DNA of 64,000 nt from Myxococcota bacterium (GTDB taxonomy: Bacteria; Myxococcota_A; UBA9160; UBA4427). The notes beneath the pieces were generated by a model, which saw only the letters and a program-made list of their open reading frames with translations, did no database searches and had not been told where the DNA came from. Of this stretch, positions 10,353 to 36,655 are shown one piece after another. The stretch spans positions 4,448,001 through 4,512,000 of the forward strand of contig OZ252299.1 of NCBI GenBank assembly GCA_965250285.1, in the 5' to 3' direction. Every line of letters begins with the position of its first letter. Within the stretch, counting starts at the first letter, position 1. Both the position numbers and the translations under genes were made by a program.

Positions 10353-12767
10353 ATGCGACGACGCGACCCCGAACAGGAATCGTGGCGACCCGGTGCCGCG
10401 CTCGGTGAAGCGACCGATCGCGTCGCCTTCGGGCGCTTCGAGCTGAACGAGGATCGGTCGGAGCTGCGCTGCGACGGCGAGCCCGTGCGGCTCGGCTCGA
10501 AGGCCTTGAGCGTGCTGACCGTGCTGGTCGAACAAGCCGGGCGCTTCGTGGCGAAGGATCAGCTACTCGCGCACGTCTGGCCGAGGACGACGGTCAGCGA
10601 TGCATCGGTCTACACGACGCTCCGTGAGCTGCGGGCCGCGCTTGGCGACGACGGCCGCGGCCAGCAGCTGATCGAGACGAAGCGCGGACGGGGCTATCGC
10701 TTGACGGTTTCGGCGCGACGATCGCCGCCCGACTCGATGAGCATCGCTGAGATCGCAGATCGCTGGACCGAGCGGACGGGGCTCGCGGCGGCCCCGATCC
10801 TCACCGACTCGATCGTTCAGAGAACGAGCGGCCGACCCGAATGGGTCGATGCCTTGATCGAAGGCGTTGCCCAGGAGCGCGCCTCACCGTGGAATGCGGC
10901 GCGCCTCGTGGCGACGACGGCGTTGCCACGTCGTCTCTACGAGCGAGCCGATGAGCGGCTGGCCGGACTCGACCCCGACACGCATCAATTCTTGCGCGCC
11001 GCGGCGACGCTCGGCGGCGCCTTCGAACCCACGGTCGCCCTCGAGCTGGCGGGGGGCCGCGAAGCCGATCTCGACGCGCGGCTCGATGCGGCTTCGACGC
11101 GCGGCTTCATCGAGCCCGATCCCCACGAGCTGCGACGCATGCGGTTCTCCGACCCGAGCCTCGCCGAGGGATTCGCCGCGGGCGAGCCACTCTCGGAGCG
11201 AGCGTCGCTGCACGCCTCGGCGGCGCTGCTGCTCGCAGGTCGCAAAGACGATCGCGAGCTCGGACAACGCGCCGCGCTCCACGCTTTGCGCTCGAATCTC
11301 CCCGCTGCGCGGATCTTCGAGCTCTGCCTCGATGCGGCGCGCGCATCGATCGCCGACGGTGCCAGAGAAGACGGCCTCGTACTGCTCCACGCGGCGGTCA
11401 CCGTCGCGAAGGCCGTCGACGTCGCGGCCCGCTACCAGGCGCTGATCGAGCTCGGCGACGCCCTCTTTCTCACGGGCGATCCCGACTCGGCCCGCAAGCA
11501 ATTCGGCCAAGCAATCGACCTTGCGAACGAACTCGACGACCCGACGCGGCTCGCCGAAGCCACCCTCGGCTTCGCGGGGACGAACAACCACGTCGACACC
11601 GGCCTGGCTTCGACCCATCGCACGCGGCTGATCGAAACGGCGCTCCGACACGCCGACCGCCTGTCGACGTCGCTCGTGGCAGCGCTCCGGGCTCGACTCG
11701 CGCTCGAGCTCGCCTGGGCGCAGCGCCCGACTGAAGCGCGACGCATGGCCGATCTGGCTCGGGCGGCCATCGACCGGGGAGAAGTCTCGGATGCGCTCGC
11801 CTCGCGTGCGCTGCACGACGTGTTCTGGTCGACGTGGTCGCCCGACAACCTCGAAGATCGCATCGCGATCGCGAGCGCGATGCGCGATCGGTCGATGTCG
11901 GCGGGGCAGACCGAGGCGAACGCGATGGCGGTTGCGCTGCATGCCGCCGCCATGCTCGAGCGCGGTGAACGCGTCGAGGCCGATTCGGCGTACCTCTCGG
12001 CCACCGAACGCGTCGGGCCGGATCAGGCCGCGATCGAGCTGCTGCGGTCGGGTCGCGAGGTGTGCATGGCCTTGCTCGAGGGGCGCTTCGACGAGGTCGA
12101 AGGGCTGGCGATCCGTGCACATACGCTCGCTCGAGCGAACGGGTCGGTGAATGCCGACACGATCTACGCCGCCCAGATCGGCTGGCTGCGATTCGACCAG
12201 GGCCGACTCGGTGAGCTCGTGTCGGCCGTGGCGGGCAGCCTCGACGCGCCTCGGTTCGAGCAACGCGCCGGTCGAGCGCTGATCTTCGCCTACGCGGGGC
12301 GCGGCACCGAGGCGCGACGTGAGCTCGACGATCTCGTGGGCCACATCGATGCCATCCCGCGCGATTCGTTCTGGATGGCGACGCTGACGATGCTCATCGA
12401 GATCGCCGCGCATCTCGGCGCCAGCGATGCGGCCGGCGTGCTCTACGAGCGGCTTCTGCCGTATGCCGACCGCGCGGTGCTGCTCGGGATCCGGACGGTG
12501 TGTCGCGGCTCGGCCGAGCTCTATCTCGGGCTGGCCGCCCGCGCGCAAGGTGCGCACGAGCAGGCACAACTGCACTTCGAGCGAGCGGCCCAGGCCAACG
12601 CAAGGCTGCGAGCAGCGCCGCTGCTCGCACGGTCGCTGCTGCTCTGGGCCGATTGCACGGAGCAGCTCGGCGCGAGCGACGCAGTCGACGAGATCGCATC
12701 GGCTCGCGACGAAGCGCAGCGGATCCGCGCGCAGCTCGGCCTCGCAACGCACGCGAGCGCCGACTGA
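10353..12767 (+). CDS. OmpR/CadC-type winged-helix regulator with STAND-like helical/TPR region but no P-loop
   Basis: FGRFEL...LLAHVWP...LRAALGDD...IETKRGRGYRL wHTH followed directly by RTSGRP/LRAAATLG helical region and TPR-like repeats; no Walker A or B seen. Confidence 0.8.
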   Translation: MRRRDPEQESWRPGAALGEATDRVAFGRFELNEDRSELRCDGEPVRLGSKALSVLTVLVEQAGRFVAKDQLLAHVWPRTTVSDASVYTTLRELRAALGDDGRGQQLIETKRGRGYRLTVSARRSPPDSMSIAEIADRWTERTGLAAAPILTDSIVQRTSGRPEWVDALIEGVAQERASPWNAARLVATTALPRRLYERADERLAGLDPDTHQFLRAAATLGGAFEPTVALELAGGREADLDARLDAASTRGFIEPDPHELRRMRFSDPSLAEGFAAGEPLSERASLHASAALLLAGRKDDRELGQRAALHALRSNLPAARIFELCLDAARASIADGAREDGLVLLHAAVTVAKAVDVAARYQALIELGDALFLTGDPDSARKQFGQAIDLANELDDPTRLAEATLGFAGTNNHVDTGLASTHRTRLIETALRHADRLSTSLVAALRARLALELAWAQRPTEARRMADLARAAIDRGEVSDALASRALHDVFWSTWSPDNLEDRIAIASAMRDRSMSAGQTEANAMAVALHAAAMLERGERVEADSAYLSATERVGPDQAAIELLRSGREVCMALLEGRFDEVEGLAIRAHTLARANGSVNADTIYAAQIGWLRFDQGRLGELVSAVAGSLDAPRFEQRAGRALIFAYAGRGTEARRELDDLVGHIDAIPRDSFWMATLTMLIEIAAHLGASDAAGVLYERLLPYADRAVLLGIRTVCRGSAELYLGLAARAQGAHEQAQLHFERAAQANARLRAAPLLARSLLLWADCTEQLGASDAVDEIASARDEAQRIRAQLGLATHASAD

Positions 12768-12798
12768 CCGCCCATGTGGGCGACACACCGACGCGTCT

Positions 12799-12825
12799 CT
12801 CAGCGAAAACTCAGGTTCGCCTCAG
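12799..12825 (+). promoter_or_regulatory. Three CTCAG direct repeats at 11-bp period; candidate winged-helix regulator binding site
   Basis: CTCAG at 12799, 12810 and 12821, between the regulator and the downstream gene. Confidence 0.55.
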
Positions 12826-12924
12826 ATTCGGGCTGCCAACATCTCTCGGTGACGGCCGCAGGTGACCCGACGAGGTCCTCCGGTCGTGCGTCCGACGCGC
12901 GGTTCACGACTGAGGGATCGAGAG

Positions 12925-14736
12925 ATGAATGCACACAGCCTGTCGAGAGGCACCGAGATTCGGCTCTCACCCATGCCAAGGCCGCGCGCCAGGTGGGCGC
13001 ATTCCGCGACTCGATCCCCGCGCTGGGTCCCGACCGTCATCGCGGCGGTCTGGATCGGGCTCTCGCCGATGGCGTCGGCGCAGACCGTGCTCTATCACAG
13101 CCCGGCCGACGACGGCGCTGCAGCGACGGAGCCCGCCCTCGTCCCGGCCGGATCCTCGGCCTCTCTCTATCTGTACTGGGCGTCGGGACCGGCCGCGTCG
13201 AGTGCGGCCGAGGAGGTCTGCTCCGCGGGAGACGGGGACGAGATCTGCGCCGGGCAGATCGAGCTGCGCGCGGAGGGGTCGTTCTCGATCGACGCCTTCA
13301 CCCCCGATGCCGCGGCCAACATCGTCTTCGCCGCGTCGCCCACGAGCCTCTCGATCAACGTGCTCGACCCGATCGGGCCCACGCCCGGCGTGAAACGGCT
13401 CGGGCAGCTCGACGTCACGACCGATCTCTCCACCGACTGCACGGCCACCGCGTGCGAGGTCGTCGTGGACCAGTTCGACGTCGTCGAGGCCGACCTCGCC
13501 ATCGCCGCGGGGAGCTTCACGACGCCCACGAGTGCCATCGCGGTTCCAGAGCCCGGGCTGCCCCTGGCCTTCGGCTTCGGCGTCGCCCTGCTCTCTCTAT
13601 TGGCGCGAAGGCGGCGACACGGTGTCAGGAACATCGTCGCAACGACCTTCATCGCGTCGAGCGCGACCCTCATCGCCGTCACCCCCGCCGAAGCCCAGCT
13701 GGAGGTGCTCGAAGACGCGCACTACATCACACGCTGCGCCGGTTCGGAACGGGACCTCCCCGTCGCGAACACGTCGTTCTGCGATCGGCCGAGGGCGTAT
13801 GCCTGGACCGGGCCCCAGGGCGTGTCGATGGCGAGCGGCGAGGCGGTCGTCTCGGCCGAAGCGTTCTCGAGCCGTCCCCGGATCCCGAAGGGCATCCCCG
13901 AAGAGCTCGCTTTGCGATTGCAGCCCCTCCTGGCCGAGCCCTTCGTCGCAATCGCGTTCGTCCAGGCGTCGGCGACCTACGAGACGAGCGGCCCCTTCAA
14001 TCCCCCGCCCGGCGGCACCGGCTTCAACTCGATCGCGATCGACGGCACGGCCGCGGTCGAGGCGACCTTCACCGTGCGACAGAAGGCCACCCCACCCATC
14101 GCAACGACGGTCGTTCCGCTGCGTCTTCGCGTCTTGGGCGAGATGACCATCAATGGCGTCGGCAACACCCAGGGTACCTTTCGGGTCACCGTCAACGGCG
14201 ACGTCGACAACGCGTTCGAGTTCATCCAGTCGGCGACCGGCTTCTACAGCGTGAACAGCGAGTTCCCGGGCGAGATCTTCGAGATCGAAGTCGGGCAGAC
14301 CTTCATCAAGCTGGTGCAGTGCTCGGCCGAAGCCCGCTGGCCCGGCGTCCCCGGCTTCTGCTCAGCCGTGCTCGACCCCATCATCGAGCTCGACCAGGAG
14401 ACCACCGATGCGCTCCTCGGCCCCAACACCTTTCCCCTCGCCGACTACTTCGAGATCGAGTACAGCGAGAACTTTCTGACCGACGCGCCGGCGAACATCT
14501 GCGGCGACGTCACCCTCGACGAGTTCGTGCTCGAATCCGACCTCGACCTTCTTCGGCAGAGCTTCATCGGCCAGGCCAGCCTCTCGGCCGATGCACTCGA
14601 TCGCTGCGCGACGCGCGCCGAGTCGACCGGCTGCGACCTCGCCGACGCCGTCGTCCTCGCTCGCACGGTGCAGGGCGGCGCCGCGCCGCGGGCGCCGGGG
14701 ATCGCGCCCGCCTGTGCCGCCGTCACGAGCCCATGA
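12925..14736 (+). CDS. Secreted protein with internal PEP-CTERM, second signal peptide and C-terminal dockerin-like domain
   Basis: Signal ...IGLSPMASA|Q (13081); VPEP at 13543 + TM + RRRR; then IVATTFIASSATLIAVTPAEA|Q (13696); C-terminal CGDVTLD...DLDLLR...CDLADAVVLAR. GAGGGA upstream of ATG 12925. Confidence 0.8.
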   Translation: MNAHSLSRGTEIRLSPMPRPRARWAHSATRSPRWVPTVIAAVWIGLSPMASAQTVLYHSPADDGAAATEPALVPAGSSASLYLYWASGPAASSAAEEVCSAGDGDEICAGQIELRAEGSFSIDAFTPDAAANIVFAASPTSLSINVLDPIGPTPGVKRLGQLDVTTDLSTDCTATACEVVVDQFDVVEADLAIAAGSFTTPTSAIAVPEPGLPLAFGFGVALLSLLARRRRHGVRNIVATTFIASSATLIAVTPAEAQLEVLEDAHYITRCAGSERDLPVANTSFCDRPRAYAWTGPQGVSMASGEAVVSAEAFSSRPRIPKGIPEELALRLQPLLAEPFVAIAFVQASATYETSGPFNPPPGGTGFNSIAIDGTAAVEATFTVRQKATPPIATTVVPLRLRVLGEMTINGVGNTQGTFRVTVNGDVDNAFEFIQSATGFYSVNSEFPGEIFEIEVGQTFIKLVQCSAEARWPGVPGFCSAVLDPIIELDQETTDALLGPNTFPLADYFEIEYSENFLTDAPANICGDVTLDEFVLESDLDLLRQSFIGQASLSADALDRCATRAESTGCDLADAVVLARTVQGGAAPRAPGIAPACAAVTSP

Positions 14737-15038
14737 GGCGAGCCGCCCGGTCTTGCGATGACGTATTCGTCGAGTCTTCGCCACGATGAACTCGACACCG
14801 GCTGAACCCGCACGTCGCGGACGGGGGTGAATGCCGCCGCGCGACGGGCACTACTCGCCTTCGCGTGACGAAACCGAGGCGCGGTGTCATCCGAAGCGCA
14901 GCCCTCCCCATCTGAGCGGCGTGCGATCTCCACACTCGAACGACGTTCCTTCATGGCGCTTCCACCAGGAAGTCATGTCGCATCTCTAGGCTCGGGGCGT
15001 TTCGGTCGTGAACCCCCACCCCAAGCGAGGTCGATGCC

Positions 15039-16583
15039 ATGTCGAGTCCCAGCTCAGTTCCCGGTTTGAACCGGCGCACCTTCCTGCGCGCCTCCGCGAT
15101 CGGCGCCGCGAGCCTGGCGGCACCGCTCGGCAGCCTGCAGGCGCGTCAGCACAAGGGCTGGCGCCCCGACTTCGCAAACGGCTACGGGCCACTCTTTCCC
15201 ACGATCGACGAAACCACCGGCCTGCCCCTGCTGAAGCTGCCCAAGGGCTTTCGGTACCGCAGCTTCGGGTGGACGGGCGACGTCATGTCGGACGGCACGC
15301 TCACGCCCGACCGACACGACGGCATGGCGGTCGTCGACGTGGGCTGGAGCCGCAAGGAGGGGCTCGTCCTCACGATGATCCGAAATCACGAACGCGGCGC
15401 CGCCGAAGCGGGCAACCCGCTGCCCTTCGTGGGCGACGGCCTGGCGCCCGTGTACGACGAGTTCACCCTCCCCGGTCTCATCGACGGCATCGGCGGCGGT
15501 ACGACGGCGGTTCGCTATAGCGTGTTCAAGCGCTCGTTCATCGGCGACGAAGCCACGCTCGGCGGGACGCTCACCAACTGTGCGGGTGGACCCACGCCCT
15601 GGCGCTCGTGGCTCACGTGCGAAGAAGTGACGATTCGCGGCTCGGCGATCGGCGCACGCGATCACGGCTATGTCTTCGAGGTGCCCTCGCCTCGCGCGGG
15701 CGCGGCGACGGCGGTGCCCATCACCGACATGGGCTTCATGGATCACGAAGCCGTGGCCGTCGATCCCCACACCGGCTTCGTCTATCTCACAGAAGACAAC
15801 GGACCGAGCTGCGGGTTCTACCGCTACCGCCCGCACGAGCGTCCCAAGCGCCCGGGCGACCTCGAGCGCGGCGGCGTGCTCGAGATGCTCAAGGTCGTGG
15901 GCGTCGAGAACGCCGACCTGCGCGACGTGGCGCCGGGCGAAGAGTTCGACGTCGAATGGGTAGTCATCGACGACCCCGATGCCGACCCCGAGGCCTTCGC
16001 GTCGCCCGACCCGGGCTTCCCGCCGATCGAGGGTTCGGGCCGCTCGGGCCCGTTCCTTCAGGGCGAGGCGGCCGGCGGCGCGGTCTTCCGACGGGGCGAA
16101 GGCTGCTGGTACAAGAACGACGTGATCTACTTCGTCGACACGAGCGGGGGCGTCGCGGGCAAGGGCAGCGTGTTCGCCCTCCGCCTGCCCAAGGATCCGG
16201 TGAACGGCATCGGCCGACTGCGGGCGCTCTTCGTCTCGCCCGACGAGGAGACCGCCGACAACCCCGACAACATCACCGTCTCGCCCCGCGGCGGCCTCGT
16301 GCTCTGCGAAGACGGCGGCGGCCAGGTCATCGACGGCGAGCGGACGTTCGGCGCCCGGCTGCTCGGGGTGAATCGACGGGGGGAGTCGTTCGTGTTCGCC
16401 GAGAACAACGTCGTCATCGAGAGCGCTCTCGACGACAAGCCCTTCATCCTGCCCGAAGACTACCGCGGCAGCGAGTTCGCGGGCGCCACGTTCTCACCGT
16501 TCGGGTTCACGCTGTTCGTCAACATCCAGACGCCCGGGATCACCTTCGCCATCGATGGTCCGTGGTGGAAGGGCGGGCTCTGA
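15039..16583 (+). CDS. phoX: PhoX family (DUF839) alkaline phosphatase, Tat-exported
   Basis: Tat motif NRRTFL; HDGM, RNHE, NCAGGPTPW..WLTCEE, DNPDNI, LCEDG, SEFAGATFSP, FVNIQTPG. Confidence 0.88.
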   Translation: MSSPSSVPGLNRRTFLRASAIGAASLAAPLGSLQARQHKGWRPDFANGYGPLFPTIDETTGLPLLKLPKGFRYRSFGWTGDVMSDGTLTPDRHDGMAVVDVGWSRKEGLVLTMIRNHERGAAEAGNPLPFVGDGLAPVYDEFTLPGLIDGIGGGTTAVRYSVFKRSFIGDEATLGGTLTNCAGGPTPWRSWLTCEEVTIRGSAIGARDHGYVFEVPSPRAGAATAVPITDMGFMDHEAVAVDPHTGFVYLTEDNGPSCGFYRYRPHERPKRPGDLERGGVLEMLKVVGVENADLRDVAPGEEFDVEWVVIDDPDADPEAFASPDPGFPPIEGSGRSGPFLQGEAAGGAVFRRGEGCWYKNDVIYFVDTSGGVAGKGSVFALRLPKDPVNGIGRLRALFVSPDEETADNPDNITVSPRGGLVLCEDGGGQVIDGERTFGARLLGVNRRGESFVFAENNVVIESALDDKPFILPEDYRGSEFAGATFSPFGFTLFVNIQTPGITFAIDGPWWKGGL

Positions 16584-16590
16584 GCACGGC

Positions 16591-18132: not shown

Positions 18133-18178
18133 GCGATCAGCCTAGCAGGCCGACCCTGCGGCATCGGCCGGGTCGGCG

Positions 18179-19156: not shown

Positions 19157-19161
19157 ATTGG

Positions 19162-20464: not shown

Positions 20465-21706
20465 TCAGTTCGGGGCGTCGCCCATCGCGAGGTCGGGGAA
20501 CGGGTTCGGGAGCTCGGTCCAGCTGCTGCCGTCGCCCGAAGCGAGCTTCTCGTCGAGCAGACACGCGTCGAGACCGGCCCGAATCGCCTCTTCGTTCATG
20601 TCCTGGCCGATGAACACCAGCTCCTGCGCGCGGTCGCCGAATCGCGGATGCCAGTTCGCCTGTTCGTCGGGCCGCTGGCCTTCGGGGTGCCCCCAGTGCT
20701 CGCGCGGGACCGCCGCCCACCACATCCCGGCCGGGTCGACGCTGCTGACGCCGCCGGCCTGGGCCCATTCGTAGGCGACGGAATGATTGGCCGCGATCCA
20801 GAAGAAGCCCTTCGATCGAAGCACACCATTCCAGTTGTCGTCGTCGTTCATGAACGCCCACAGCTTCTCGGCGTCGAAGGGCTCGTGCGTTCGGTAGACG
20901 AAGCTCGAGATGCCGTACTCCTCGGTCTCGGGCGTGTGCTCCCCCTGCAGCTCACGAATCCAGCCCGCTGAGCTCGCCGCCTTGTCGTAGTCGAACAGGC
21001 CGGTGTCGAGCACGCTGTCGAGGGGCACCTCGCCTCGCGTGGCCCGCTTGATCTCGGCCCCCGGGTTGAGTGCCTGGATGATGGCCTCGACTTCGCACGC
21101 CTGGTCGTCGGTCACGAGGTCGAGCTTGTTCAGCACGATCACGTCGGCGAACTCGATCTGGTCGATCAGCAGGTCGGTCACCGTGCGGTGGTCGTCCTCG
21201 CCGAGTGACTCGCCGCGTTCTTGCAGCGCGTCGGCGGCGTTGTAGTCACGCAGGAGGCTCGCCGCATCGACGACCGTCACCATCGTATCGAGGCGCGAGA
21301 CGTGACTCAGGCTGACGCCCTCTTCGTCTTCGAACGTGAAGGTCTGTGCGACCGGGATCGGTTCGGAGATGCCGGTCGACTCGATGAGCAGATAGTCGAA
21401 GCGCCCTTCCTGGGCGAGGCGCGACACCTCAGCAAGCAGGTCGTCGCGCAGCGTGCAGCAGATGCAGCCGTTCGACATCTCGACGAGCTTCTCTTCGGTG
21501 CGTGAGAGCTCGGCGCCCCCTCGCTCGACCAGCGCGGCGTCGATGTTGACCTCGCTCATGTCGTTCACGATCACCGCGACGCGGCGACCCTCACGGTTGT
21601 GGAGCACCTGGTTCAGCAGGGTCGTCTTGCCTGCACCGAGAAAGCCCGACAGGACGGTGACGGGCAGACGCTCCGGGCTGGGCGTCGTCGGCTGGCTCGA
21701 GCTCAT
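20465..21706 (-). CDS. COG0523 G3E zinc metallochaperone GTPase (ZigA/YciC-like)
   Basis: [55 protein letters not shown]. Confidence 0.94.
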
Positions 21707-26099: not shown

Positions 26100-26710
26100 G
26101 TGAGGATGCCCCGCCCACGCCGAGCGAACGAAAGAAGCCGACGACGGCCGCCCGCGTGGTGAAGTACGTCGTGATCACGACCTACGTCGTCGGGTTCTTG
26201 AGCTCGCCGCAGTGGCTGCCGCTCATGTTCCCGGAGACGCCCGTCGTCACCGAGCAGGCGGCGCTGGATGGCGTCGAAGCACAGGATTTCGAGACCATCT
26301 CGTGGAACCGGCTCGGCGGCTTCCCGTACGAGTTCGAGATGGCCGGCTTCCTCGACGACGCGTCGCCCGAGGTGCTCGCCGAACGCAACGAACGATTGAT
26401 CCCGACCGAAGTGCGCGCCCTCGACGGCCAACCGGTCGCGGTGCGCGGCTACGCGATCCCCGTCTCGATCTCGCAGGGCCGGGTCACCGACTTCATCCTC
26501 GCCGCCAAGAACGAGATCGGCTGCTGCTTCGGGGCCGGCCTGGCCATGAATCAGTGGATCCATGTCGCCGTGCCCGAGGGCCAGGTCTTCGACATCGAGC
26601 CCTACGAGATCGCCACGATCCTCGGGCGACTCGAGGTCGGCGAGGAGGTGAAGCAGGGCACCGTGCTGAGCCTCTACCGCCTGCGCGACGCGACGGCCCG
26701 CCGCGGGTGA
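26096..26710 (+). CDS. DUF3299 family protein
   Basis: ALDGQPVAVRGYAIP, DFIL...GCCFG...NQWIHV, GRLEVG, YRL; ATGA overlap with upstream gene. Confidence 0.75.
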   Translation: MSEDAPPTPSERKKPTTAARVVKYVVITTYVVGFLSSPQWLPLMFPETPVVTEQAALDGVEAQDFETISWNRLGGFPYEFEMAGFLDDASPEVLAERNERLIPTEVRALDGQPVAVRGYAIPVSISQGRVTDFILAAKNEIGCCFGAGLAMNQWIHVAVPEGQVFDIEPYEIATILGRLEVGEEVKQGTVLSLYRLRDATARRG

Positions 26711-27384
26711 CAGCGGCGCTTCACATCGAGGGGCTCCGAAAGAGCTACACCACACCCGAAGGCGAGCGCCAAACGGTGATCGACCTGCCGTCGTTCTCGA
26801 TCGACGCGGGGGAGCAGGTCGCGCTGCACGGGCGCAGCGGCTGCGGCAAGACCACCCTGCTCCACCTCATCGCCGGCATCCTGAGCCCCGACGCCGGTCG
26901 CATCGTCGTGGCGGGCGAAGAGATCACCGTACAGTCCGAAGGCGAGCGCGACCGCACGCGCGGTCGACTGATCGGCTACGTATTCCAGAGCTTCAACCTG
27001 CTCGGTGCCTACTCTGCGCTCGAGAACGTGCTCCTCGCCATGCACTTCGGCGAAGGGGAGAGCGCCGACCGCGCGGCCGAGCTGCTCGAGCGCGTGGGGC
27101 TCGGCGATCGGATGCACTACCGACCCCCTCAGCTCTCGATCGGGCAACGGCAGCGCGTCGCCGTCGCCCGCGCGCTGGCCAACCAGCCGGCGCTGGTGCT
27201 CGCCGACGAACCGACGGGCAACCTCGACCCCGAGAACGCCGCATCGTCGCTCGCTCTACTCAGAGACACGGCGCACGAGATGGGCGCCGCGATGCTGCTC
27301 GTGAGCCACGACGACGAGATCTTGCGCGCATTCGATCGCTGCGAAGAGTTCGGCGAGCTCGCGCGCGCAGGAGCCGAACGTTGA
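26707..27384 (+). CDS. ABC transporter ATP-binding protein (LolD/MacB-like)
   Basis: GRSGCGKTT, LSIGQRQRVAVARAL, LADEPTGNLD; GTGA overlap at 26707-26710. Confidence 0.92.
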   Translation: MTAALHIEGLRKSYTTPEGERQTVIDLPSFSIDAGEQVALHGRSGCGKTTLLHLIAGILSPDAGRIVVAGEEITVQSEGERDRTRGRLIGYVFQSFNLLGAYSALENVLLAMHFGEGESADRAAELLERVGLGDRMHYRPPQLSIGQRQRVAVARALANQPALVLADEPTGNLDPENAASSLALLRDTAHEMGAAMLLVSHDDEILRAFDRCEEFGELARAGAER

Positions 27385-28640
27385 GGGCGGGGCTCGGCCT
27401 GCTCGTCCGGCGCAGCTTGCGCGAGCATCTCTTCTCGAGCTGCATCACGATCGCATCGGTCGGCCTCGCCACCGGGCTGGTGCTCGCCGTGTTTGCGATT
27501 CAGGAGCAGAGCCTGCGCGCGTTCGCTGGGGGACCGCTCGGCTTCGACGCCGTGCTCGGCGCGCGGGGCAGTCAGCTACAGCTGGTGCTCAACGCCGTAT
27601 TCCATCTCGAGACGTCGCCGGGCAACATCCCGTGGACGCTCTACGAAGCCATCGAGCGCAATCCCCAGGTCGAACGCGCGATCCCCTACGCCGTCGGCGA
27701 CAACTACCAAGGCTTTCGCATCGTCGGGACGGTGCCGGCGCTGTTCGATGCGAAGGACGACGATGGCCGACCGCCGCTGCGCGTCGCGCCGGGCGGGCGG
27801 CTCTTCGATTCGGATCGGTCCGAGGCCGTCATCGGCGACCAGGTCGCGCGTGCGACCGGTCTCGGTCTCGGCGATCGCTTTCATCCCTATCACGGTCTCG
27901 TTTTCGACGAGGATGCGCGGCACGCCGAGGAGTACGTCGTCGCGGGTGTGCTCGAGTCGAGCAACACACCCGCAGATCGCGTCATCTGGATCCCGATCGA
28001 CGGGATCTACCGAATGGCTGGCCACGTGCTCAAGGGGAGTGGCGAAGTCTACGAGGCCGGCGCGCAGGCCGAGATCCCCGACGAGCACAAGGAGGTGAGC
28101 GCGGTCATGCTGAAGCTGTCCGCGCCGCAGGCCGGCTTCATGCTCGACCAGATGATCAACAAGCAGGGCAAGATCGCCACGCTCGCTTGGCCGATCGGCG
28201 GCGTGATGGTGGATCTCTTCGATAAGCTCGGCTGGGCGATTCGGGTGCTGGGCCTGGTGGCCTATCTCGTCGTGCTCGTCGCGGCCGGCTCGATCGTCGC
28301 GAGCATCGTCAACACCATGCAGGAGCGAAGCCGCGACTTCGCGGTGCTGCGCGCACTCGGTGCGCGTCGCTTCACGGTCTCAGCCGCGATCGTGGGCGAA
28401 GCGGCGAGCATCGGCGCCCTCGGCGCGCTGATCGGCTTCGCGGTGTATGCGGCGATCTTCGGCCTCGCGCGCGCGGTCGTGCGCACTGAGACCGGGGTCG
28501 TCCTCGACCCGTGGATGTGGCATCCGGTCTTCGTGATCGCACCCGCTGCGGTGATCGGGCTCGCAGCGGTCGCGGGCCTGATCCCCGCGCGACTCGCCTA
28601 CCGCACGGACGTCGCCACGCACCTGCTGCCGCCGAGCTGA
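27381..28640 (+). CDS. ABC transporter permease (FtsX/MacB-like)
   Basis: GARGSQLQLVLNAVFH, GDNYQGFRIVGT, ERSRDFAVLRALGA, TM helices. Confidence 0.9.
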   Translation: MRAGLGLLVRRSLREHLFSSCITIASVGLATGLVLAVFAIQEQSLRAFAGGPLGFDAVLGARGSQLQLVLNAVFHLETSPGNIPWTLYEAIERNPQVERAIPYAVGDNYQGFRIVGTVPALFDAKDDDGRPPLRVAPGGRLFDSDRSEAVIGDQVARATGLGLGDRFHPYHGLVFDEDARHAEEYVVAGVLESSNTPADRVIWIPIDGIYRMAGHVLKGSGEVYEAGAQAEIPDEHKEVSAVMLKLSAPQAGFMLDQMINKQGKIATLAWPIGGVMVDLFDKLGWAIRVLGLVAYLVVLVAAGSIVASIVNTMQERSRDFAVLRALGARRFTVSAAIVGEAASIGALGALIGFAVYAAIFGLARAVVRTETGVVLDPWMWHPVFVIAPAAVIGLAAVAGLIPARLAYRTDVATHLLPPS

Positions 28641-29758: not shown

Positions 29759-29764
29759 TATAAT
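29759..29764 (+). promoter_or_regulatory. Perfect -10 hexamer TATAAT 7 nt before ATG; probable leaderless promoter
   Basis: TATAAT-CGACCGA-ATG(29772); no SD-like sequence. Confidence 0.6.
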
Positions 29765-29771
29765 CGACCGA

Positions 29772-32417
29772 ATGTGGCGCATCGGTCCGTATCGACTCGA
29801 CCCATCGACGTTCACGCTCGACCGAGACGGCGAGCCGATCGCGCTGCAGCGTCGCCCCTACGATCTCCTCTTGTATCTCGTTGCCCACAGCGACCGAGTC
29901 GTCTCGCGCGACGAGCTGTTGCGAGAGGTGTGGGGTGGCATATCGGTCGCTTCGGGCGCGGTGAGCACGGCCGTGTACGAGGTTCGAGCCGCGCTCGGCG
30001 ATCTCGAGCGACCGCGCGACGAACGCTTGATCGAGACGATCCGCGGGCGGGGCTTCCGTTTTCGCGGATCGGGTCAGGTGACCGAGGCAGACCGACCGAA
30101 CCACGACGCCCTGCCCTTCATTGGCCGCGGTCGAGTGCTCGATCGCTTGCGTACGCGGCTCGAAGCCGCGCGACGCGGTCGCGGCGGCGCCCTCGTGGTC
30201 GAGGGGCGCGCCGGGATCGGCAAGACCCGCGTCCTCCAGGAGCTCGTCGGAGAGTTGAGCGGCTTCGCGATCGAGACGGTGCACTGCGAGCCCGGTGCGC
30301 CTCCGCTCTGGCCTTGGACGCAGCTGCGGCAATCGCTCGGACACGCCGACGCCGTCGCATCGCCCGTCGAGCTCGACGAGGCAGAAGACGACGCCCGCCT
30401 GCACTTCGAGCGCATCGGGCGCTACGCGGAGCTGCTCGGCGAGGCGTCGCTCGCGCATCCCGTCGTCGTCCTGATCGAGGATCTTCACTGGGCCGATCCA
30501 TCTTCGCGTGCCGTCCTCGAATCGCTCGCACCGCGCCTCTCAAATGAGCGCGTGCAGATCATCGCGACCGAGCGAAGCGAAGGCGACCGCGAGCCCGAGG
30601 GCGAGCGCGTCGGATCGAGTCGGGTGGAGCGGGTTCGTTTGAGCGCACTTCGAACGACGCAGCTCTACCCCTTCATCGAGTCGATCCTAGGAAGAATCCC
30701 GTCGCCCGAGCTCGTCGGATGGATCGAGCGCCACAGCCAGGGCATTCCACTGATGGTCCGCGAGCTCGCCGAGCGCGTCTCGATCGAAGGCGAGTCATTG
30801 ATCGATGTGCCTCGAATCGCCGGGCTCGTCTTCGCCCATCGTTTCGATCGGCTCGACGCGACCTCTCGACTGGCGATCGGGGTCGCGTCGCTCTGCGGGA
30901 TCCGGTTCGACGCGCCGCTGGTCGAAGCCGCCGCGGGCGATGCCCTCCCCGCCGATCGTGTGTGGATTCGCGAGGGCCTGCAGTCGGGCATCCTCGTCCA
31001 CGTCACGGGACATCCGCTGCGCTTCGCGTTTCGTCATGCGCTGCTGAGGGACGCGGCCGAGAGCATGCTCGAAGCGACATCGGTGTCGGGCTGGCATCGG
31101 CGGCTGGCGTCGGCGATCGAGCGAGGGAGGCCCGAGCCGGTCGGATCGACGCTGTCGCAACTCGCCCGCCACTCAGCCGCCGCGGCCGTCGAGCAGGCCG
31201 ATGTGAGCGGCCCGCTCCACTACGCTCTGCTCGCGGCGCAACGCGCTGCCCGTGTGTTCGAGTGGGCCGAGGTCGCGACCCACACGGCTCACGCACTGAG
31301 CTGGATCGAGTATGCCCCCCCTGGCCTCGATCGCGATCGCCAGGAGATCGAAGCAGCGCTCCTGCGCTGCGCAGCGATCGCTTCGTCCACCGGCCACGTC
31401 GAAGAGACCGCCGCGTTGCTCGAGCGAATCGACCCCCTCCTGCCACGATGCGGCGCCCCGTGGGCGCGCGGCGCGGCGGAGGCGTTCCAGTTCTCGAACG
31501 CGAGATGCGTCGGTGACTACGATCGCGCCTGGCAAGCCATCGAGGTGATCGAGCTTCAGCCCGAGCTCGCACGGGTCGCCGACTGTTGGCGACGCACGCT
31601 CACCGTCGCGACGGGCGACTTCTCTCCGTCGGCCGACGACGCGGACTGGGGCGCACGCCTGCCGCTCGACCCCGAGTTCCACGCGTTCGCTCGGCTCTCG
31701 GGGCGAGATCCCGGGATCGACCGATTGGGGCACGTCGCGCTCGCACACTTCGCGCGCGGCGAAGATGCGCGGGCCGTCGCCTGCGCCGAGCGTGCGGTGG
31801 CCTGGGCCGATGCGAGCGGCGACGCCCGCGGACGCATCTGGGCGCTCTTCCTCTTGTGCACGGTGCACGAGATGCGTCGCGACTGGGGCGAGCTTCGACG
31901 CCTCGCGCCCGAGATCGATCAGGCGGGCCGACGGACCGGGCTGAGCGCCTGGCTCGGCGTGGGGGCCGGGTTTCGGCTCTGGGCCGAGGCACGCGAGAAG
32001 GGCGATCCAAGCCCGGCGCTCATGCCGCTTGCGCGGATCCTTCACGACCGCGGCCGATCGACGAGCACCACCCTGACGACCCCTCTCCTGCTCTTCGCGA
32101 GCCGGGTGTTCAGCTGGAGCGGCGCGCACGAAACCGCTGCACGCGTGGCGCGCGAGGGCATCGCGTGGGTCGAACGCACGGGGGAGCACATGGTCTCGGC
32201 CGAGCTGTACCGGCAGCTCGGCCACGCCCTCGATCGAGGCGCTGCGCCCGAGGAGGCCGCCGCGGCCAGGCGGCGCGGCATCGAGCTCGCGCGCCGGCAA
32301 GGTCACGTCGTCAGCGAAGCCCGAGGCCTGCGCGATCGCCAGCGGGCCGGCGTCGCCACGCCGACCGAGCTGACCCGCCTGCTCGAGCTCGAAGAGACGC
32401 CTCCGGCAGAGACGTAG
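29772..32417 (+). CDS. Winged-helix + AAA/STAND ATPase + TPR-like transcriptional regulator
   Basis: wHTH (SRDELLREVW...IETIRGRGFRF), FIGR, Walker A GRAGIGKT, Walker B LIEDLHWAD, FAFRHALLRD. Confidence 0.88.
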   Translation: MWRIGPYRLDPSTFTLDRDGEPIALQRRPYDLLLYLVAHSDRVVSRDELLREVWGGISVASGAVSTAVYEVRAALGDLERPRDERLIETIRGRGFRFRGSGQVTEADRPNHDALPFIGRGRVLDRLRTRLEAARRGRGGALVVEGRAGIGKTRVLQELVGELSGFAIETVHCEPGAPPLWPWTQLRQSLGHADAVASPVELDEAEDDARLHFERIGRYAELLGEASLAHPVVVLIEDLHWADPSSRAVLESLAPRLSNERVQIIATERSEGDREPEGERVGSSRVERVRLSALRTTQLYPFIESILGRIPSPELVGWIERHSQGIPLMVRELAERVSIEGESLIDVPRIAGLVFAHRFDRLDATSRLAIGVASLCGIRFDAPLVEAAAGDALPADRVWIREGLQSGILVHVTGHPLRFAFRHALLRDAAESMLEATSVSGWHRRLASAIERGRPEPVGSTLSQLARHSAAAAVEQADVSGPLHYALLAAQRAARVFEWAEVATHTAHALSWIEYAPPGLDRDRQEIEAALLRCAAIASSTGHVEETAALLERIDPLLPRCGAPWARGAAEAFQFSNARCVGDYDRAWQAIEVIELQPELARVADCWRRTLTVATGDFSPSADDADWGARLPLDPEFHAFARLSGRDPGIDRLGHVALAHFARGEDARAVACAERAVAWADASGDARGRIWALFLLCTVHEMRRDWGELRRLAPEIDQAGRRTGLSAWLGVGAGFRLWAEAREKGDPSPALMPLARILHDRGRSTSTTLTTPLLLFASRVFSWSGAHETAARVAREGIAWVERTGEHMVSAELYRQLGHALDRGAAPEEAAAARRRGIELARRQGHVVSEARGLRDRQRAGVATPTELTRLLELEETPPAET

Positions 32418-32596
32418 ACGCGGCTCGCCGGGGTCCTCGCAGCGGCCGCGCAGCAAGGCGGCACTTCGAGCGCCGAAACACACGAACTGAAGAAACGCTG
32501 AACCTTCCGGGCGGAGCGAGCGCCCTTTGGGACGAGAAAGCGCGGCATGCTGTTTCGGCGCGGGAACGGGTGGCACCGATCCCCAGGAGACTCGAA

Positions 32597-34480
32597 ATGG
32601 CGCCCAGCGAAGCAGATCCCACCACCCCGGCGACGGCCGACTCTCGCCCCGCGTGGGGACGGGTCGTCGGGCTCGTCGTGGCGATCTTCGGGTTCGTCTG
32701 CGCCAGCCCCTCCGTCGCGCAGGAGATCGTGCGCGCGTCCCCCGATGTGACGATCCCCATTGGCGCCGCAGCCGTGGTCACGCGCGACGATCAGGTCGCC
32801 GTCGACGACCGTCTCGGCGCCGTCACGGCCGACGTACTCGTCGGCATCCCCGAGACCGCGGCGATCGCGGCCTTCTCTCGCGTCGGCGCGTCGTACGCCG
32901 TGGCCTTCGAGACGCAGACCCAGCTGCCGGGCGGGCTCATCGCCGACCCGGCCGACGTCGTCGTCTACGATGCGCTCAACGCGGCCTACAAGATCTTCTT
33001 CGACGGCTCGGGCCTGCCGCTCGGCACCCGGGTCGATGCGGTCTCGTTCGCCGGAAGCGCGCTGCTTCTGTCGTTCGGCGAGCGCACGAACCTGGGATTC
33101 ATCGTCGACGACGAAGACGTCGTTCGCTGGGACGGGAGCTTCTATACGCTCGCCTTCGATGGCTCGGCGGCGGGCCTCGATCCGGCCGTCGACACCGACG
33201 CGGTTCAGATGCTCGGACCGAATACACTGCTGTTGAGCTTCGACATCACGGGCGCGGTGGGCGGCATCGTGTTTCGCGATGAAGACGTGATGCGCTTCGA
33301 AGACGGTGTATGGAGCCTCGAGTACCAGGCGGCGGCCAGCGAGCCGAGCTGGATCGCGGCCGACCTCGACGCCATGACCGTGCCCGAGCCAACGACGGGG
33401 CCGCTCTTCGTGGCCGGCTTCGCTTCGCTCGCGGCAATGGCCGCGCGCAGACGGCGGCGCCGGGGCCCCGTTGCTGTGACGTGCACGCTGGCGATCGCGG
33501 CGCTGACCCTGGGCCCCGCCACAGGGGCCGGCGCGAGCGAGGGACGCCTCGAAATCAACCACACCTGCGCCACGCAGACGGGCTGCGGCGCGGGCGACAC
33601 GCCGGGCTATCCGGTCACGATCACGAGCGCGAGTCGGCGCAGCATCGTGCTGACGAGCAACCTCGTCGTACCCGACGCATCGACGACCGCCATCGACATT
33701 CTGGTCAGCGACGTCACGGTCGACCTCGCAGGCTTCTCGATCCTGCGCAGCGGCTGCGAAGGCGCGACGGCGAGCTGCACGGATACGTCGGCGAGCAACG
33801 CCGGCATCCGCGCCATCGGCTCTCCCAGTCCGAGCATCGAGCTGTACGGCTTCCGGGTGTACGGCGGCAGCGCCATCGGCTTCAGCGACGGGGTCGTGCT
33901 CGGGTACGCATCCGAGATTTCGAACGTGCGCGCACGTTGGAACCGCTTCTCGGGCATCGGAACGATCGGGTACGGCGGCCTGCTCTTCGACAACACGACG
34001 CTCGAGAACCCCGAGTTCGGCGTCACTACCGGAACGTTCGGGCCCAGTGTCGCGATCGGCAATCGAACCCATCAGAACGGTGTCGGCCTCATCGGGACTG
34101 GCAGTGCCCTGGTGCTGGCCGACAACGTCGGGTTCGAGAACAGCGTCGGCGGCTTTTCGACGAGCACGTCGACCAGCGTATTCGTGTCGAATACGAGCTA
34201 CGGCAATGCGGGCAACGGGCTCACCGTCTCGCCCGGCGAAGCCGCGATCTTCGAAGTGAATACGGTCTACGACAACACAGACGGGATCTTCGGTGGCGAC
34301 GGCACCCTCGCGCGGGGCAACGTGGCGCGGAACAACTCGGGCATTGGCATCCGACTCGGCCCGGACGGTGGCTATCGCGAGAACGTCCTGACGAACAACG
34401 CGGGGGGCCAAGTGAGCTCGGGGATCAACCTCGGCGACAACGCCTGCTCGGGGCCATCGGGGGTGGCGCCATGTCCGTGA
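32597..34480 (+). CDS. Secreted protein: repeat domain + internal PEP-CTERM + second signal peptide + right-handed beta-helix domain
   Basis: AGGAGA RBS; signal ...FVCASPSVA|Q (32720); VPEP at 33380 + TM + RRRRRR; GPVAVTCTLAIAALTLGPATGAGA|SEGRLEINHTC (33536); N-x-x-x-x-N-x-x-x-G repeats. Confidence 0.85.
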   Translation: MAPSEADPTTPATADSRPAWGRVVGLVVAIFGFVCASPSVAQEIVRASPDVTIPIGAAAVVTRDDQVAVDDRLGAVTADVLVGIPETAAIAAFSRVGASYAVAFETQTQLPGGLIADPADVVVYDALNAAYKIFFDGSGLPLGTRVDAVSFAGSALLLSFGERTNLGFIVDDEDVVRWDGSFYTLAFDGSAAGLDPAVDTDAVQMLGPNTLLLSFDITGAVGGIVFRDEDVMRFEDGVWSLEYQAAASEPSWIAADLDAMTVPEPTTGPLFVAGFASLAAMAARRRRRRGPVAVTCTLAIAALTLGPATGAGASEGRLEINHTCATQTGCGAGDTPGYPVTITSASRRSIVLTSNLVVPDASTTAIDILVSDVTVDLAGFSILRSGCEGATASCTDTSASNAGIRAIGSPSPSIELYGFRVYGGSAIGFSDGVVLGYASEISNVRARWNRFSGIGTIGYGGLLFDNTTLENPEFGVTTGTFGPSVAIGNRTHQNGVGLIGTGSALVLADNVGFENSVGGFSTSTSTSVFVSNTSYGNAGNGLTVSPGEAAIFEVNTVYDNTDGIFGGDGTLARGNVARNNSGIGIRLGPDGGYRENVLTNNAGGQVSSGINLGDNACSGPSGVAPCP

Positions 34481-35529
34481 GCCATCTCGAAGCGGCTCCG
34501 CGCGCCCGTTCTCCGTTCGGCCGACGGGGCGGGTATCGCGCCGCTCTGCTCGCCTTCGCCCTCTTCATGGCGGGCAGCGATCGTGCCTTCGCGAGCGACG
34601 GATTGGTCGAGCTCGACCAGCTGTGTGCCGTTCATTCGGGCTGCATGGCGGGCGACACGCCGGGCTTCCCGATCACAATCACCGGCGCAGGGGGCCGCAG
34701 CTTCATCCTGACGACCAACCTCATCGTGCCGGGCGGCGGGACCAATGCGATCTCGATCGACGCAACCGACGTCTCGATCGATCTGAACGAGCACACGATT
34801 CTGCGTTCGGAGTGCGTCGGCGCCACGACCGACTGCAGCAGCACCGCGTTCGGTGCGATCGCGATCGTACAGACAGCGCCGGCGGCAGCCGCTGGCGGTG
34901 CGACCGTCCGAGATGGGCGGATCCTGGGTTTCGGGCAAGGCCTGCTTCTCGGTCGGGGTGCGGAGGTTCGCAACGTCGTCACGCGATGGATTCGCGGCGC
35001 CGGCATCTCTTCGCGCGGTCACGGCACGCTCCTATTCAGCAACACCGTGGATCAGTGCTTCGGGAGCCTGCTCGCGAACAGCATCGATCCGGGCGGGGTG
35101 GCGATCGGCAATCGCGTTTCGGGCGGTGCGAGCTTTGGCTTCGCGGTGAACCAACCGGGCATCGTCGTCGTCGACAACGTCGCGCTCGAGAACGGCGCGG
35201 TCGGGCTCTTGGCCAGTGAAAGCGCAGTGATGGTCGACAACGTCGCCCAGGGGAACACGACGTACGGCCTGACCGCCGACGAAGGCTCGGTCGTCATTCG
35301 AAACACCGCCCATGACAACGACCAGGGGGGCCTGTTCGTACAGGGCGGCTCTCTGGTCCGAGGCAACGTCGCACGCAGCAGCTCGATCGGCCCGGGCATC
35401 ACGGCAGCCGCACCGACGGGCCAGGGGCATCTGGAGAACGTCTCGAGCAACAACGCCGGCGGCGACGTCGTGGGCCCGCGCGTCGACCTGGGTGCCAATG
35501 CATGTGGCGGAACACCCGGGTGCCCCTGA
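34471..35529 (+). CDS. Secreted right-handed parallel beta-helix protein (paralog 2)
   Basis: Signal ...ALLAFALFMAGSDRAFA|SDGLVELDQLC...GDTPGFPITI; ends DLGANACGGTPGCP; start overlaps upstream stop (ATG 34471 or GTG 34477). Confidence 0.85.
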   Translation: MSVSHLEAAPRARSPFGRRGGYRAALLAFALFMAGSDRAFASDGLVELDQLCAVHSGCMAGDTPGFPITITGAGGRSFILTTNLIVPGGGTNAISIDATDVSIDLNEHTILRSECVGATTDCSSTAFGAIAIVQTAPAAAAGGATVRDGRILGFGQGLLLGRGAEVRNVVTRWIRGAGISSRGHGTLLFSNTVDQCFGSLLANSIDPGGVAIGNRVSGGASFGFAVNQPGIVVVDNVALENGAVGLLASESAVMVDNVAQGNTTYGLTADEGSVVIRNTAHDNDQGGLFVQGGSLVRGNVARSSSIGPGITAAAPTGQGHLENVSSNNAGGDVVGPRVDLGANACGGTPGCP

Positions 35530-35647
35530 CACAGCGCCCACCCCGACGGAAAGGGGTCACGCCGATCCGCCGAACGAAACGACGCGCAGAAGCGAAGAGC
35601 AGCGAGACGAGACGCAGCGAAGAGCGTGCCCGAAGGAGAAGCCGAAG

Positions 35648-36655
35648 ATGACGCAGAACCGCACCCGACCCACCTCGCTCGCGGCGGCCCTGGCCGCCGC
35701 GAGCCTCGGCGTCGCACTGTACGCGCCGTCGGCGGCGGCGCTCGACGGTCGCTTCGAGCTGAATCAGCTGTGCGCGACCGTCACCGGCTGCATTCAGGGC
35801 GACACGCCCGGCTTTCCCATCACGCTGACGGTGGCGGCAACGGCTGGCTACGTCTTGACGAGCGAACTCGTCGTCCCCGACGCGAATACCTCGGCGATCG
35901 TGATCTCGGCGAACGACGTGCACATCGACCTGAACGGGTTTCGCATCGTTCGCAGCGGGTGCGAGAACGCCGTCGCCACGTGTGAAGCCGCGAGCGGATC
36001 GGGCGATGGCATCGGCGTCGACGACTTCTCGCTTCGACGCGGAACGAGCGTGACGAACGGCAACGTCGTCGGGATGGGCCGATACGGACTGCTCCTGGGC
36101 CCGCAGGCCCATGTGACGCACATTCAGGCGCGTTGGAATCGTCTCGAGGGCATCGCCGTGAACGAGAGCGGGCGCGTGCATCGCGTTCGCTCGATCGAGA
36201 ATGGAGGCGCGGGGATCTCGGTCGCCAGCGGCTCGACGGTGTCGGAAAGTGCAGCCGTCGGAAACGGCGGCGCCGGCATCTTCACCGCGACGGGATGCCA
36301 CGTCGTCCGCAACGTCGCCTGGGACAATGACGCTCAGGGCATCCGCAGTACGACCGGCTCGGTGATCCGACACAACGCCGTCGGCGACAACGGCAACATC
36401 GCGGGCATCCAGGCCGCCGCTTCCACCGTGGCGGGCAACGCCGTTGCGAACCAATCGGGCGGGCCGGGCATTCTCGCGACGACCGGCTCGATGGTCGAGT
36501 CGAATGCGATCACCGATACGGCCCTCGGCAGCGAAGGGCTCTCGCTCGGAGACGCGGGCTACCGTGGCAACGTGCTGACCGACAACCCCACTGGCCATGT
36601 CACGGGCGGAATCAACCTGGGCGCGAACGCCTGCGACGGAGTGCTCTGCCCCTAG
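35648..36655 (+). CDS. Secreted right-handed parallel beta-helix protein (paralog 3)
   Basis: AAGGAG RBS; signal ...LYAPSAAA|LDGRFELNQLC...GDTPGFPITL; ends NLGANACDGVLCP. Confidence 0.88.
   Translation: MTQNRTRPTSLAAALAAASLGVALYAPSAAALDGRFELNQLCATVTGCIQGDTPGFPITLTVAATAGYVLTSELVVPDANTSAIVISANDVHIDLNGFRIVRSGCENAVATCEAASGSGDGIGVDDFSLRRGTSVTNGNVVGMGRYGLLLGPQAHVTHIQARWNRLEGIAVNESGRVHRVRSIENGGAGISVASGSTVSESAAVGNGGAGIFTATGCHVVRNVAWDNDAQGIRSTTGSVIRHNAVGDNGNIAGIQAAASTVAGNAVANQSGGPGILATTGSMVESNAITDTALGSEGLSLGDAGYRGNVLTDNPTGHVTGGINLGANACDGVLCP

Follow-up and report, generated by a model that had tools for sequence, protein, structure and literature searches.

The window analysed here is a 64,000-nucleotide stretch (positions 4448001-4512000) of the 6.25-Mb single-contig genome of a Myxococcota bacterium (G000:C1). 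It contains two genes for putative transcriptional regulators, and each lies directly 5' of, and co-oriented with, a gene encoding a polyprotein with an internal PEP-CTERM sorting tag. Genes were called using our own dicodon model, and all genome-wide counts given below depend on these calls.

Two regulators and two polyproteins

A preliminary description of the window regarded both regulators as OmpR-type winged helix-turn-helix (wHTH) proteins with a STAND/TPR region, placed upstream of the polyprotein genes. The wHTH was found in both, as were the position and orientation; the STAND ATPase is missing from one. Regulator 1 (10353..12767, + strand, 804 residues) has its OmpR-type wHTH at residues 42-117, joined straight to a STAND-derived helical and TPR region with no nucleotide-binding domain between them. 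Regulator 2 (29772..32417, + strand, 881 residues) has a wHTH at residues 20-97, an AAA_16 STAND ATPase at residues 115-262 and a helical C-terminal region. A domain scan placed Trans_reg_C (PF00486) at the N-terminus of both. The AAA_16 match of regulator 2 (E 3.9e-19) begins 18 residues past the wHTH, and Walker A, Walker B and GxP motifs occur at residues 145, 233 and 323. The same scan, together with a motif check, detected neither AAA_16 nor a Walker A motif in regulator 1. When the C-terminal part of this protein is aligned with full-length relatives, the match begins only at about residue 320 of the latter. A GxP-like motif and the region downstream of it are retained, and the orthologues likewise have no P-loop domain. 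In neither regulator was there a match to BTAD (E≤0.05) or to a receiver domain, and the wHTH is N-terminal. No clear membrane helix was seen; the best 19-residue hydropathy was 1.31 in regulator 2 and a borderline 1.66 in regulator 1, at residue 341, far from the wHTH. The closest matches of the wHTH in the PDB were CadC (5ju7), CovR and PhoB.

The -10-like hexamers noted earlier 6-7 nt before both start codons were confirmed. CATACT, preceded by TG (10341..10346, + strand), lies 6 nt before the regulator 1 ATG, and TATAAT (29759..29764, + strand) lies 7 nt before the regulator 2 ATG. Both are of the leaderless type. The idea that they are special to the regulators was rejected: TAnnnT was present 6-10 nt ahead of the start in 257/3304 ATG genes genome-wide, with a peak at 6-7 nt, and is an ordinary leaderless-type signal. 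By this measure at least 8% of the ATG genes in this genome look leaderless.

The polyprotein genes also proved to be as described, with an internal PEP-CTERM and a second signal-like segment in both. Polyprotein 1 (open reading frame 12925-14736) has 603 residues with the PEP motif at residue 208, and polyprotein 2 (32597-34480) has 627 residues with the motif at residue 263. Both have the same layout, which is a signal peptide, a module A, a PEP-helix-Arg cluster, a second hydrophobic segment with an AxA site, and a module B. All of the parts listed here are on the + strand. In polyprotein 1 the first signal peptide region (12925..13080, cleavage site placed by eye) precedes module A1, for which structure prediction and a fold search indicate a cohesin fold (13081..13545). 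Next come the internal PEP-CTERM with PEP, hydrophobic helix and RRRR (13546..13617), a second signal-peptide-like segment ending in AEA (13618..13695), cargo B1 (13696..14499) and a C-terminal dockerin-like domain of a Cys-rich variant, recognized by profile comparison (14500..14736). In polyprotein 2 the first signal peptide region (32597..32719) is followed by module A2, predicted to be an Asp-rich β-propeller with no close solved relative (32720..33382), the internal PEP-CTERM (33383..33463), a second signal-peptide-like segment ending in AGA (33464..33535) and module B2, a right-handed β-helix (33536..34480). Two free-standing B2 paralogues, each with its own signal peptide, lie downstream (34477..35529 and 35648..36655).

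TIGR02595, the PEP-CTERM model, scored 18.2 bits on polyprotein 1 and 25.8 bits on polyprotein 2 (cut-off 16); in another scan polyprotein 1 scored 13.7 bits, below the cut-off. Neither tag is at the extreme C-terminus, with 396 residues beyond it in polyprotein 1 and 365 in polyprotein 2. The genome has 72 TIGR02595 matches above the cut-off and 6 exosortase-family (PF09721) matches. The PrsR model TIGR02915 produced none above its cut-off in this genome, a sigma-54-like box was found upstream of 1/69 terminal PEP-CTERM genes, and a search for such a box upstream of both polyprotein genes found none.

Polyprotein junctions and a predicted cohesin-dockerin pair

The distribution of the modules was surveyed in 193 genomes of the order. 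A1 was found in 52/193 and A2 in 62/193. The 40 larger A2 loci included 11 with A2-PEP-signal-B2 fused and 25 with a terminal tag, and a regulator was adjacent in 6. A1 was fused in 18/35 hits, a count in which two are paralogues in this genome and one looks spurious. The second hydrophobic segment was retained in 35/37 distinct junctions. In alignments, mature B2 is predicted to begin level with both free-standing neighbours, and mature B1 level with a free-standing B1-dockerin protein (P0001). B1 has one homologue in the protein database and otherwise only unnamed Atlas clusters. A2, a predicted propeller, had no PDB sequence match, and its best fold match had a Z of 9.9 with a root mean square deviation of 4.4. 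Sequencing error is an unlikely source of the fusions because they recur and because contigs match at the junction; contigs of two public runs, possibly from the source sample, cross the polyprotein 1 junction with zero differences.

Exosortase and signal peptidase are predicted to cleave each polyprotein, which would yield a pair of exported proteins. The fusions could also be tolerated losses of a stop codon, in which case the downstream module would be made from its own internal start or be tethered by two membrane helices, with no processing by two enzymes. Split and fused forms are equally common, and long junctions with an internal Met occur in L067, L089 and L008. The junction of polyprotein 2 contains in-frame GTG and ATG codons, which weighs against two-enzyme processing there, and the available portion of Haft 2006 (PMC1569441) doubts atypically placed tags, suggesting that they may be non-functional. 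We still felt that stop-codon loss was unlikely. A check of the polyprotein 1 junction (13546-13695) for ATG and GTG found neither in frame, many junctions are trimmed such that the Arg cluster runs straight into the second hydrophobic segment and AxA site, and the public contigs cited above reproduce the fusion.

Other polyproteins were noted in the survey. L007 and L008 (G000:C1:2850916-2852523 and 960403-962082) each have two PEP-CTERM tags. L008 is a tandem duplicate whose halves are 56% identical, with a long linker and an internal Met, possibly a recent stop loss. In L030:12410-18016 and L129:2205-3953 what follows the internal PEP-CTERM looks like a lipoprotein signal (a hydrophobic stretch with a Cys at its end) and not like a type I signal.

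Module A1 gave an AlphaFold2 (AF2) model with a predicted local distance difference test (pLDDT) value of 86, and the top Foldseek matches of this model were cohesins (best E 2e-5, TM ~0.6), in keeping with the nine-stranded β-sandwich of that fold. Pfam cohesin models matched 0/32 A1 family members. The C-terminal 79 residues of polyprotein 1 belong to a Cys-rich dockerin family whose profile matches solved dockerins (best E 1.5e-4). The predicted complex of A1 with this dockerin scored 0.88 compared with 0.23 for the best control, and the contacts run through two dockerin helices. Complex runs agreed in at least 93% of contacts, with a partner pLDDT of at least 72. The mark used for the complex score was reached by 116/157 solved pairs and 2/215 mismatched pairs.

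The two modules also occur together. Three genes of this genome each encode an A1 module together with such a dockerin, and they account for all three copies of each. A dockerin was present at 18/19 larger A1 loci, in the same open reading frame in 12 and in a nearby gene in 6. A1 was likewise present at 41/44 dockerin loci, drawn from 273 loci that are not independent, using a dockerin profile that was seeded from A1 loci. Three forms of B1 were found: one anchored by its own PEP-CTERM (L245, L246, L279), one a free B1-dockerin (G203), and the form in the window, which is fused behind cohesin-PEP. From the sequences we read these as direct anchoring having been exchanged for docking.

Several observations weigh against the pairing. 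Type I dockerins have a duplicated calcium loop-helix motif, and here the first of the calcium loops is degenerate. Pfam Dockerin_1 misses the copy in the window and matches 4/15 family members. The complex score of 0.88 may reflect likeness to solved cohesin-dockerin complexes. Finally, no cohesin was found within 1.5 kb of G203 (57%), the closest B1 relative, and no regulator either, which also counts against the link between regulator and cargo.

Two further cohesin loci of this genome should be mentioned. L003 (G000:C1:2966414-2974506) is a third case of a wHTH gene, here a 157-residue wHTH-only stub, followed by a cohesin-PEP-signal-cargo-dockerin polyprotein (947 residues); next in the locus is a two-partner secretion pair consisting of a TPS domain protein and a ShlB-type transporter. 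L006 (G000:C1:456539-470614) encodes a 4691-residue polyprotein with cohesin-PEP, a second signal, a giant repeat-rich cargo and a C-terminal dockerin, and has no regulator upstream.

A literature search that covered few subscription papers returned none on PEP-CTERM polyproteins, none on cohesin combined with PEP-CTERM and none on wHTH-STAND regulators at PEP-CTERM genes. The Bradyrhizobium fbcH precursor contains an internal signal, and the search found nothing on point.

Repeats, regulator clades and their neighbours

The gap between regulator 1 and polyprotein 1 (gap 1) contains three copies of CTCAG with a period of 11 (12799..12825, + strand, copies at 12799, 12810 and 12821), the likely operator of regulator 1. 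A likely extended -10, TG-c-CAACAT (12834..12842, + strand), 26 nt after the second TCAG core, would be part of the polyprotein 1 promoter. The corresponding gap 2 contains two copies of CTGAA with the same period (32487..32502, + strand, copies at 32487 and 32498), the likely operator of regulator 2, whose clade has the core TGAR. Pentamer repeats of 11-bp period had been claimed for both gaps. In gap 1 the claim holds well, as exact triples at period 11 occur in 4/2405 gaps genome-wide and the CTCAG triple is the sole intergenic one of that pentamer. In gap 2 there is only an exact pair, which 9.6% of the 2405 gaps possess, so this pair is weak taken alone. The two cores differ and point opposite ways (TCAG and TGAA). 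A single motif common to both gaps was rejected, with the cores splitting by regulator clade. A genome-wide regulon for either motif was rejected as well; the other intergenic matches (CTCAG pair, 6; CTGAA pair, 1) are not at PEP-CTERM genes.

A relative with ~90% identity, a marine metagenome contig, spans gap 1; the gap 2 repeats are outside the contigs of that relative. Substitutions were read from the differences listed, with 51 rows outside that list. Among the listed differences the TCAG cores are unchanged, spacer bases 12804, 12807, 12810 and 12815 are substituted, and CAACAT becomes CACTCT, only the three middle bases of the -10 being altered.

Orthologues of regulator 1 were sought in 225 genomes of the class. 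The search returned two full-length ATPase-less proteins (41% and 37% identity) and two partial ones, and three of these group with regulator 1 (support 0.999). A metagenome contig, L279 (46%), supplied a further orthologue with an identical recognition helix; L280 duplicates L245, and L281 spans only the C-terminal half of the regulator. TCAG-N7-TCAG was found upstream of the neighbouring PEP-CTERM cargo, on its sense strand, in 4/4 independent full-length relatives of regulator 1 (L245, L246, L248, L279), against a background of 11/2881 gaps. The arrays of L245, L246 and L279 were examined after the prediction had been made, while the L248 repeats had already been seen. The position of the cargo varies, being upstream of the regulator in L245, convergent in L246, divergent in L248 and downstream in L279. 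In L245, L246 and L279 the neighbour is a free-standing homologue of B1 that has a signal peptide of its own and ends in a PEP-CTERM, the likeness to B1 being mostly in the C-terminal part. L248 adjoins another PEP-CTERM gene. Two shorter relatives of regulator 1 do not fit this pattern, as L247 carries the TCAG pair on the other strand and L282 has neither the pair nor a PEP-CTERM neighbour. In a separate observation, the C-terminal part of the regulator 1 relative at L248:2153-4564 is swapped for an α/β-hydrolase domain and the TCAG array is retained.

Ten relatives group with regulator 2 (tree support 0.999). The partial L232 and L277 were added, giving 12 loci. A genome-collection scan using the regulator 2 wHTH alone returned 4 distant matches, which were not used. 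TGAR-N7-TGAR was present on the target sense strand in 5/12 (L090, L225, L228, L233, L277), with a background of 24/2881 gaps. L225, the best-scoring relative, has a nearly identical 20-base site, with another gene between the site and the regulator. The A2/B2 cassette flanks L090 (layout as in the window), L099, L232 and L233. The L228 regulator precedes a different β-helix protein, and a PEP-CTERM gene is near most other members. This clade is the weaker case. The phased pair is reversed in 4/12 and absent from 3/12, just 4/12 flank the A2/B2 cassette, and the target gaps were picked by eye; those of L090, L228 and L233 had been glimpsed earlier, while the L225 gap and L277 were new.

The regulator family was then considered at large. 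This genome has 15 Trans_reg_C genes, with the domain N-terminal in 9. A PEP-CTERM gene adjoins 6/9 of these N-terminal wHTH regulators compared with 0/6 response regulators and 2.5% of other genes. A regulator is directly upstream of 3/6 internal-PEP genes, whereas one is adjacent to 3/69 terminal ones (Fisher p 0.005, a post hoc value that includes the two prompting cases). For relatives in other genomes, 110 loci were chosen from the listed matches by frame length and usable flank (42 and 54 further matches were outside the lists). They contained 112 N-terminal wHTH regulators, and removal of 22 with short flanks left 90 for neighbour counts. The preliminary description had proposed to look for an enrichment of downstream PEP-CTERM genes. 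PEP-CTERM occurred within 3.5 kb, on either side, of 22/90 regulators compared with 5.2 expected, about fourfold enriched. The expectation uses each genome's PEP-CTERM density, scaled from this genome, and related genomes are not independent. With one regulator per genome the value was 6.5/38 compared with 2.0 expected. Positions relative to the regulator were downstream in the same orientation (10), upstream divergent (6), upstream in the same orientation (5) and downstream convergent (4), where a locus may count twice.

The order regulator, repeats, polyprotein is not a conserved module as had been supposed. Orientation varies, a polyprotein was within 3.5 kb of only 2/90 relatives, and regulator adjacency among A2 cassettes with B2 was 3/11 for fused and 3/15 for split forms. 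No such regulator was near 34/40 A2 loci or 19/19 larger A1 loci, which also counts against a fixed cassette. On these numbers we rejected a link of the regulator either with the cohesin module or with the fused state of a cassette.

Near-perfect period-11 triples occurred in 15/112 upstream and 9/104 downstream regions, while other periods (7-16) gave 0-4 and 0-3. A wider metagenome set of 60 distinct regulators of the broader family provided 59 upstream regions that could be scored, and triples of period 11 were present in 25/59 compared with 0-1 at other periods. In the 27 loci of this set that extend at least 5 kb, PEP-CTERM was near 0/27 regulators. By sequence the repeats thus appear to characterize the regulator family as a whole, and the link to PEP-CTERM to be a trait of this lineage. 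Against the proposed operators, about three quarters of the 112 regulators have no strong array. A general helix-to-core code over 128 regulators is at most suggestive (TGGAG in one subfamily, CAGGA in another), and many regulators share the helix pattern and show nothing.

One subfamily stands apart. Six wHTH proteins of ~525 residues without Walker A (L038, L039, L111, L115, L116, L147) have TGGAG three times at period 11, mostly just before their own start, and array and subfamily appear to form a clean regulator-operator pair. The same TGGAG array lies upstream of an A2 cassette in L105, with no regulator in view.

The regulators may be general activators of mobile accessory islands, with the repeats as real operators and the PEP-CTERM link reflecting shared variable regions of the lineage. 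Such an explanation would account for the 68/90 relatives with no PEP-CTERM within 3.5 kb, the varied orientation, the 0/27 metagenome loci despite repeats in 25/59, and the clustering of PEP-CTERM genes within this genome. We consider it quite unlikely. Regulator 1 orthologues in two other genomes of the order and on one metagenome contig adjoin a B1 homologue in three arrangements with the TCAG array ahead of it, which argues for specific pairing rather than shared territory. The proposal of a dedicated regulator for each surface cassette can be kept in part. Each clade seems to keep its own period-11 core and related cargo, in addition to the PEP-CTERM enrichment; the strict module is lost.

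The spacing of the repeats suggests how they would act. A YAnnnT hexamer, the predicted -10, begins 25-26 nt past a core in 6/9 clade gaps, gap 1 included and gap 2 not. The same offset was the peak in 24 arrays picked regardless of offset, with 6/24, the next highest being 2. This spacing would put the core at about -38 to -35, so that the repeat replaces the -35. AfsR repeats overlap the -35 and activate by recruiting polymerase, according to the available sections of PMC11301090, and we infer activation from this shared position. Gap 2 departs from the pattern, with two copies only and no -10 at 25-26 nt (the nearest is at 47); its operator is likely real but less well supported by sequence than that of gap 1. 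Repressor or autoregulatory sites in place of activator sites for the cargo gene are very unlikely: the TGGAG arrays just upstream of their regulator's own start and the third gap 1 copy, between the -35 position and the -10, would suit them, but the L245 and L246 arrays are at the cargo promoter, away from the regulator start, and the -35 spacing is that of the activating AfsR repeats.

Other genes of the window were also inspected. A Tat-exported PhoX alkaline phosphatase (15039-16583) lies on the same strand 300 bp 3' of polyprotein 1. A 1088-residue lipoprotein-like open reading frame (1553-4819) has weak YVTN-type propeller, di-haem peroxidase and CBM_4_9 matches, all below cut-off. Between the two regulator-polyprotein pairs are what we take, by eye, to be a COG0523-type metallochaperone GTPase (20465-21706) and a His-rich protein with an ABC transporter (25548-28640), a possible metal-uptake cluster.

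A proposed display mechanism and related systems

We consider it probable that the regulators are one-component activators acting on their own 11-bp-phased repeats and that each cassette product is cut to give two exported proteins, in the case of polyprotein 1 an anchored cohesin and a docking cargo. Each regulator would activate the adjacent surface cassette by binding its repeat in the place of the -35. Nucleotide exchange would switch regulator 2, as in other STAND activators. Regulator 1, having no ATPase, would either depend on its helical sensor region alone for switching or be constitutive. Exosortase and signal peptidase would then cut each product, and in the case of polyprotein 1 the membrane-anchored cohesin would serve as a socket onto which the dockerin-tagged cargo docks back as a plug. 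Judged by gene neighbourhoods, the regulator appears to belong to the cargo (B1; A2/B2-type proteins), and fusion to a polyprotein appears to be a separate, recurrent event. We infer DNA binding, activation rather than repression, cleavage, and docking in the cell; the cohesin fold of A1 and its complex with the dockerin are predicted.

A wider proposal stands at about an even chance. It is that of a one-gene self-anchoring display in a diderm, with an exosortase-lipid-anchored cohesin, a released dockerin cargo and 1:1 re-association. It would be switched on via clade-specific 11-bp operators by cargo-specific activators of the wHTH-STAND type that have no BTAD, one conserved form being without the ATPase as well, in place of PrsR/sigma-54. 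In the suggestion that the window might hold an undescribed regulated surface-display system, the regulator and repeat are a general activator design of known kind. The predicted cohesin-dockerin pair of polyprotein 1 had been overlooked.

According to the available text of Haft 2006 (PMC1569441), PEP-CTERM genes had more regulators and DNA motifs still awaiting discovery. The TCAG and TGAR cores provide two concrete candidate regulator-operator pairs in a lineage without PrsR above cut-off. The conserved STAND derivative without an ATPase offers a natural way to test the purpose of the nucleotide switch. A chain of the form cohesin-PEP-signal-cargo-dockerin would give a reason for a mid-chain tag, as socket and plug would be made in equal amounts and pass the same translocon. 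Polyprotein 1 is a small substrate on which internal exosortase cleavage could be tested and possibly a one-gene display scaffold.

SARPs of the AfsR type resemble the regulators in their OmpR-type N-terminal DNA-binding domain and in a direct-repeat core 25-26 nt before the predicted -10, as found in the 6/9 clade gaps. AfsR and the large SARPs of Streptomyces differ in that here there is no BTAD, with 18 residues between wHTH and AAA_16 in regulator 2, and regulator 1 is also without the ATPase. The targets here are surface proteins, and a distance of 25-26 nt is usual between the last core and the -10. By analogy the design would work like AfsR, yet it fails SARP membership because BTAD is absent.

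PhoB/OmpR and CadC/ToxR share the DNA-binding fold. The pho box has a period of 11 bp, and the CadC/ToxR membrane regulators have a transmembrane helix after the wHTH. The regulators of the window have no receiver and no clear membrane helix, and their wHTH is N-terminal to a predicted cytoplasmic STAND-type region.

The PEP-CTERM/exosortase system with PrsK/PrsR and sigma-54, as presented in the available parts of PMC1569441 and PMC9850573, has the same PEP-helix-Arg sorting tags. Here each tag sits within the chain, ahead of a second signal peptide, and the candidate regulators are local sigma-70-type activators, with no PrsR above cut-off. The protein MXAN_5598 has an internal MYXO-CTERM, a mid-chain tag for which an origin by gene fusion and subsequent processing were proposed (PMC11980579). 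It is a single case with another tag and sortase, and the accessible sections of that paper describe no second signal peptide and no cohesin-dockerin pairing. Single-cohesin anchors (type I cohesins, PDB 2xdh, 6kgc, 4dh2) and the planctosome proposal, in the excerpts available of PMC6461901, share the cohesin fold and a dockerin-tagged secreted partner. In the polyprotein of the window, by comparison, the predicted anchor is a PEP-CTERM in a diderm, socket and plug-bearing cargo are made as one chain, and the dockerin is Cys-rich.

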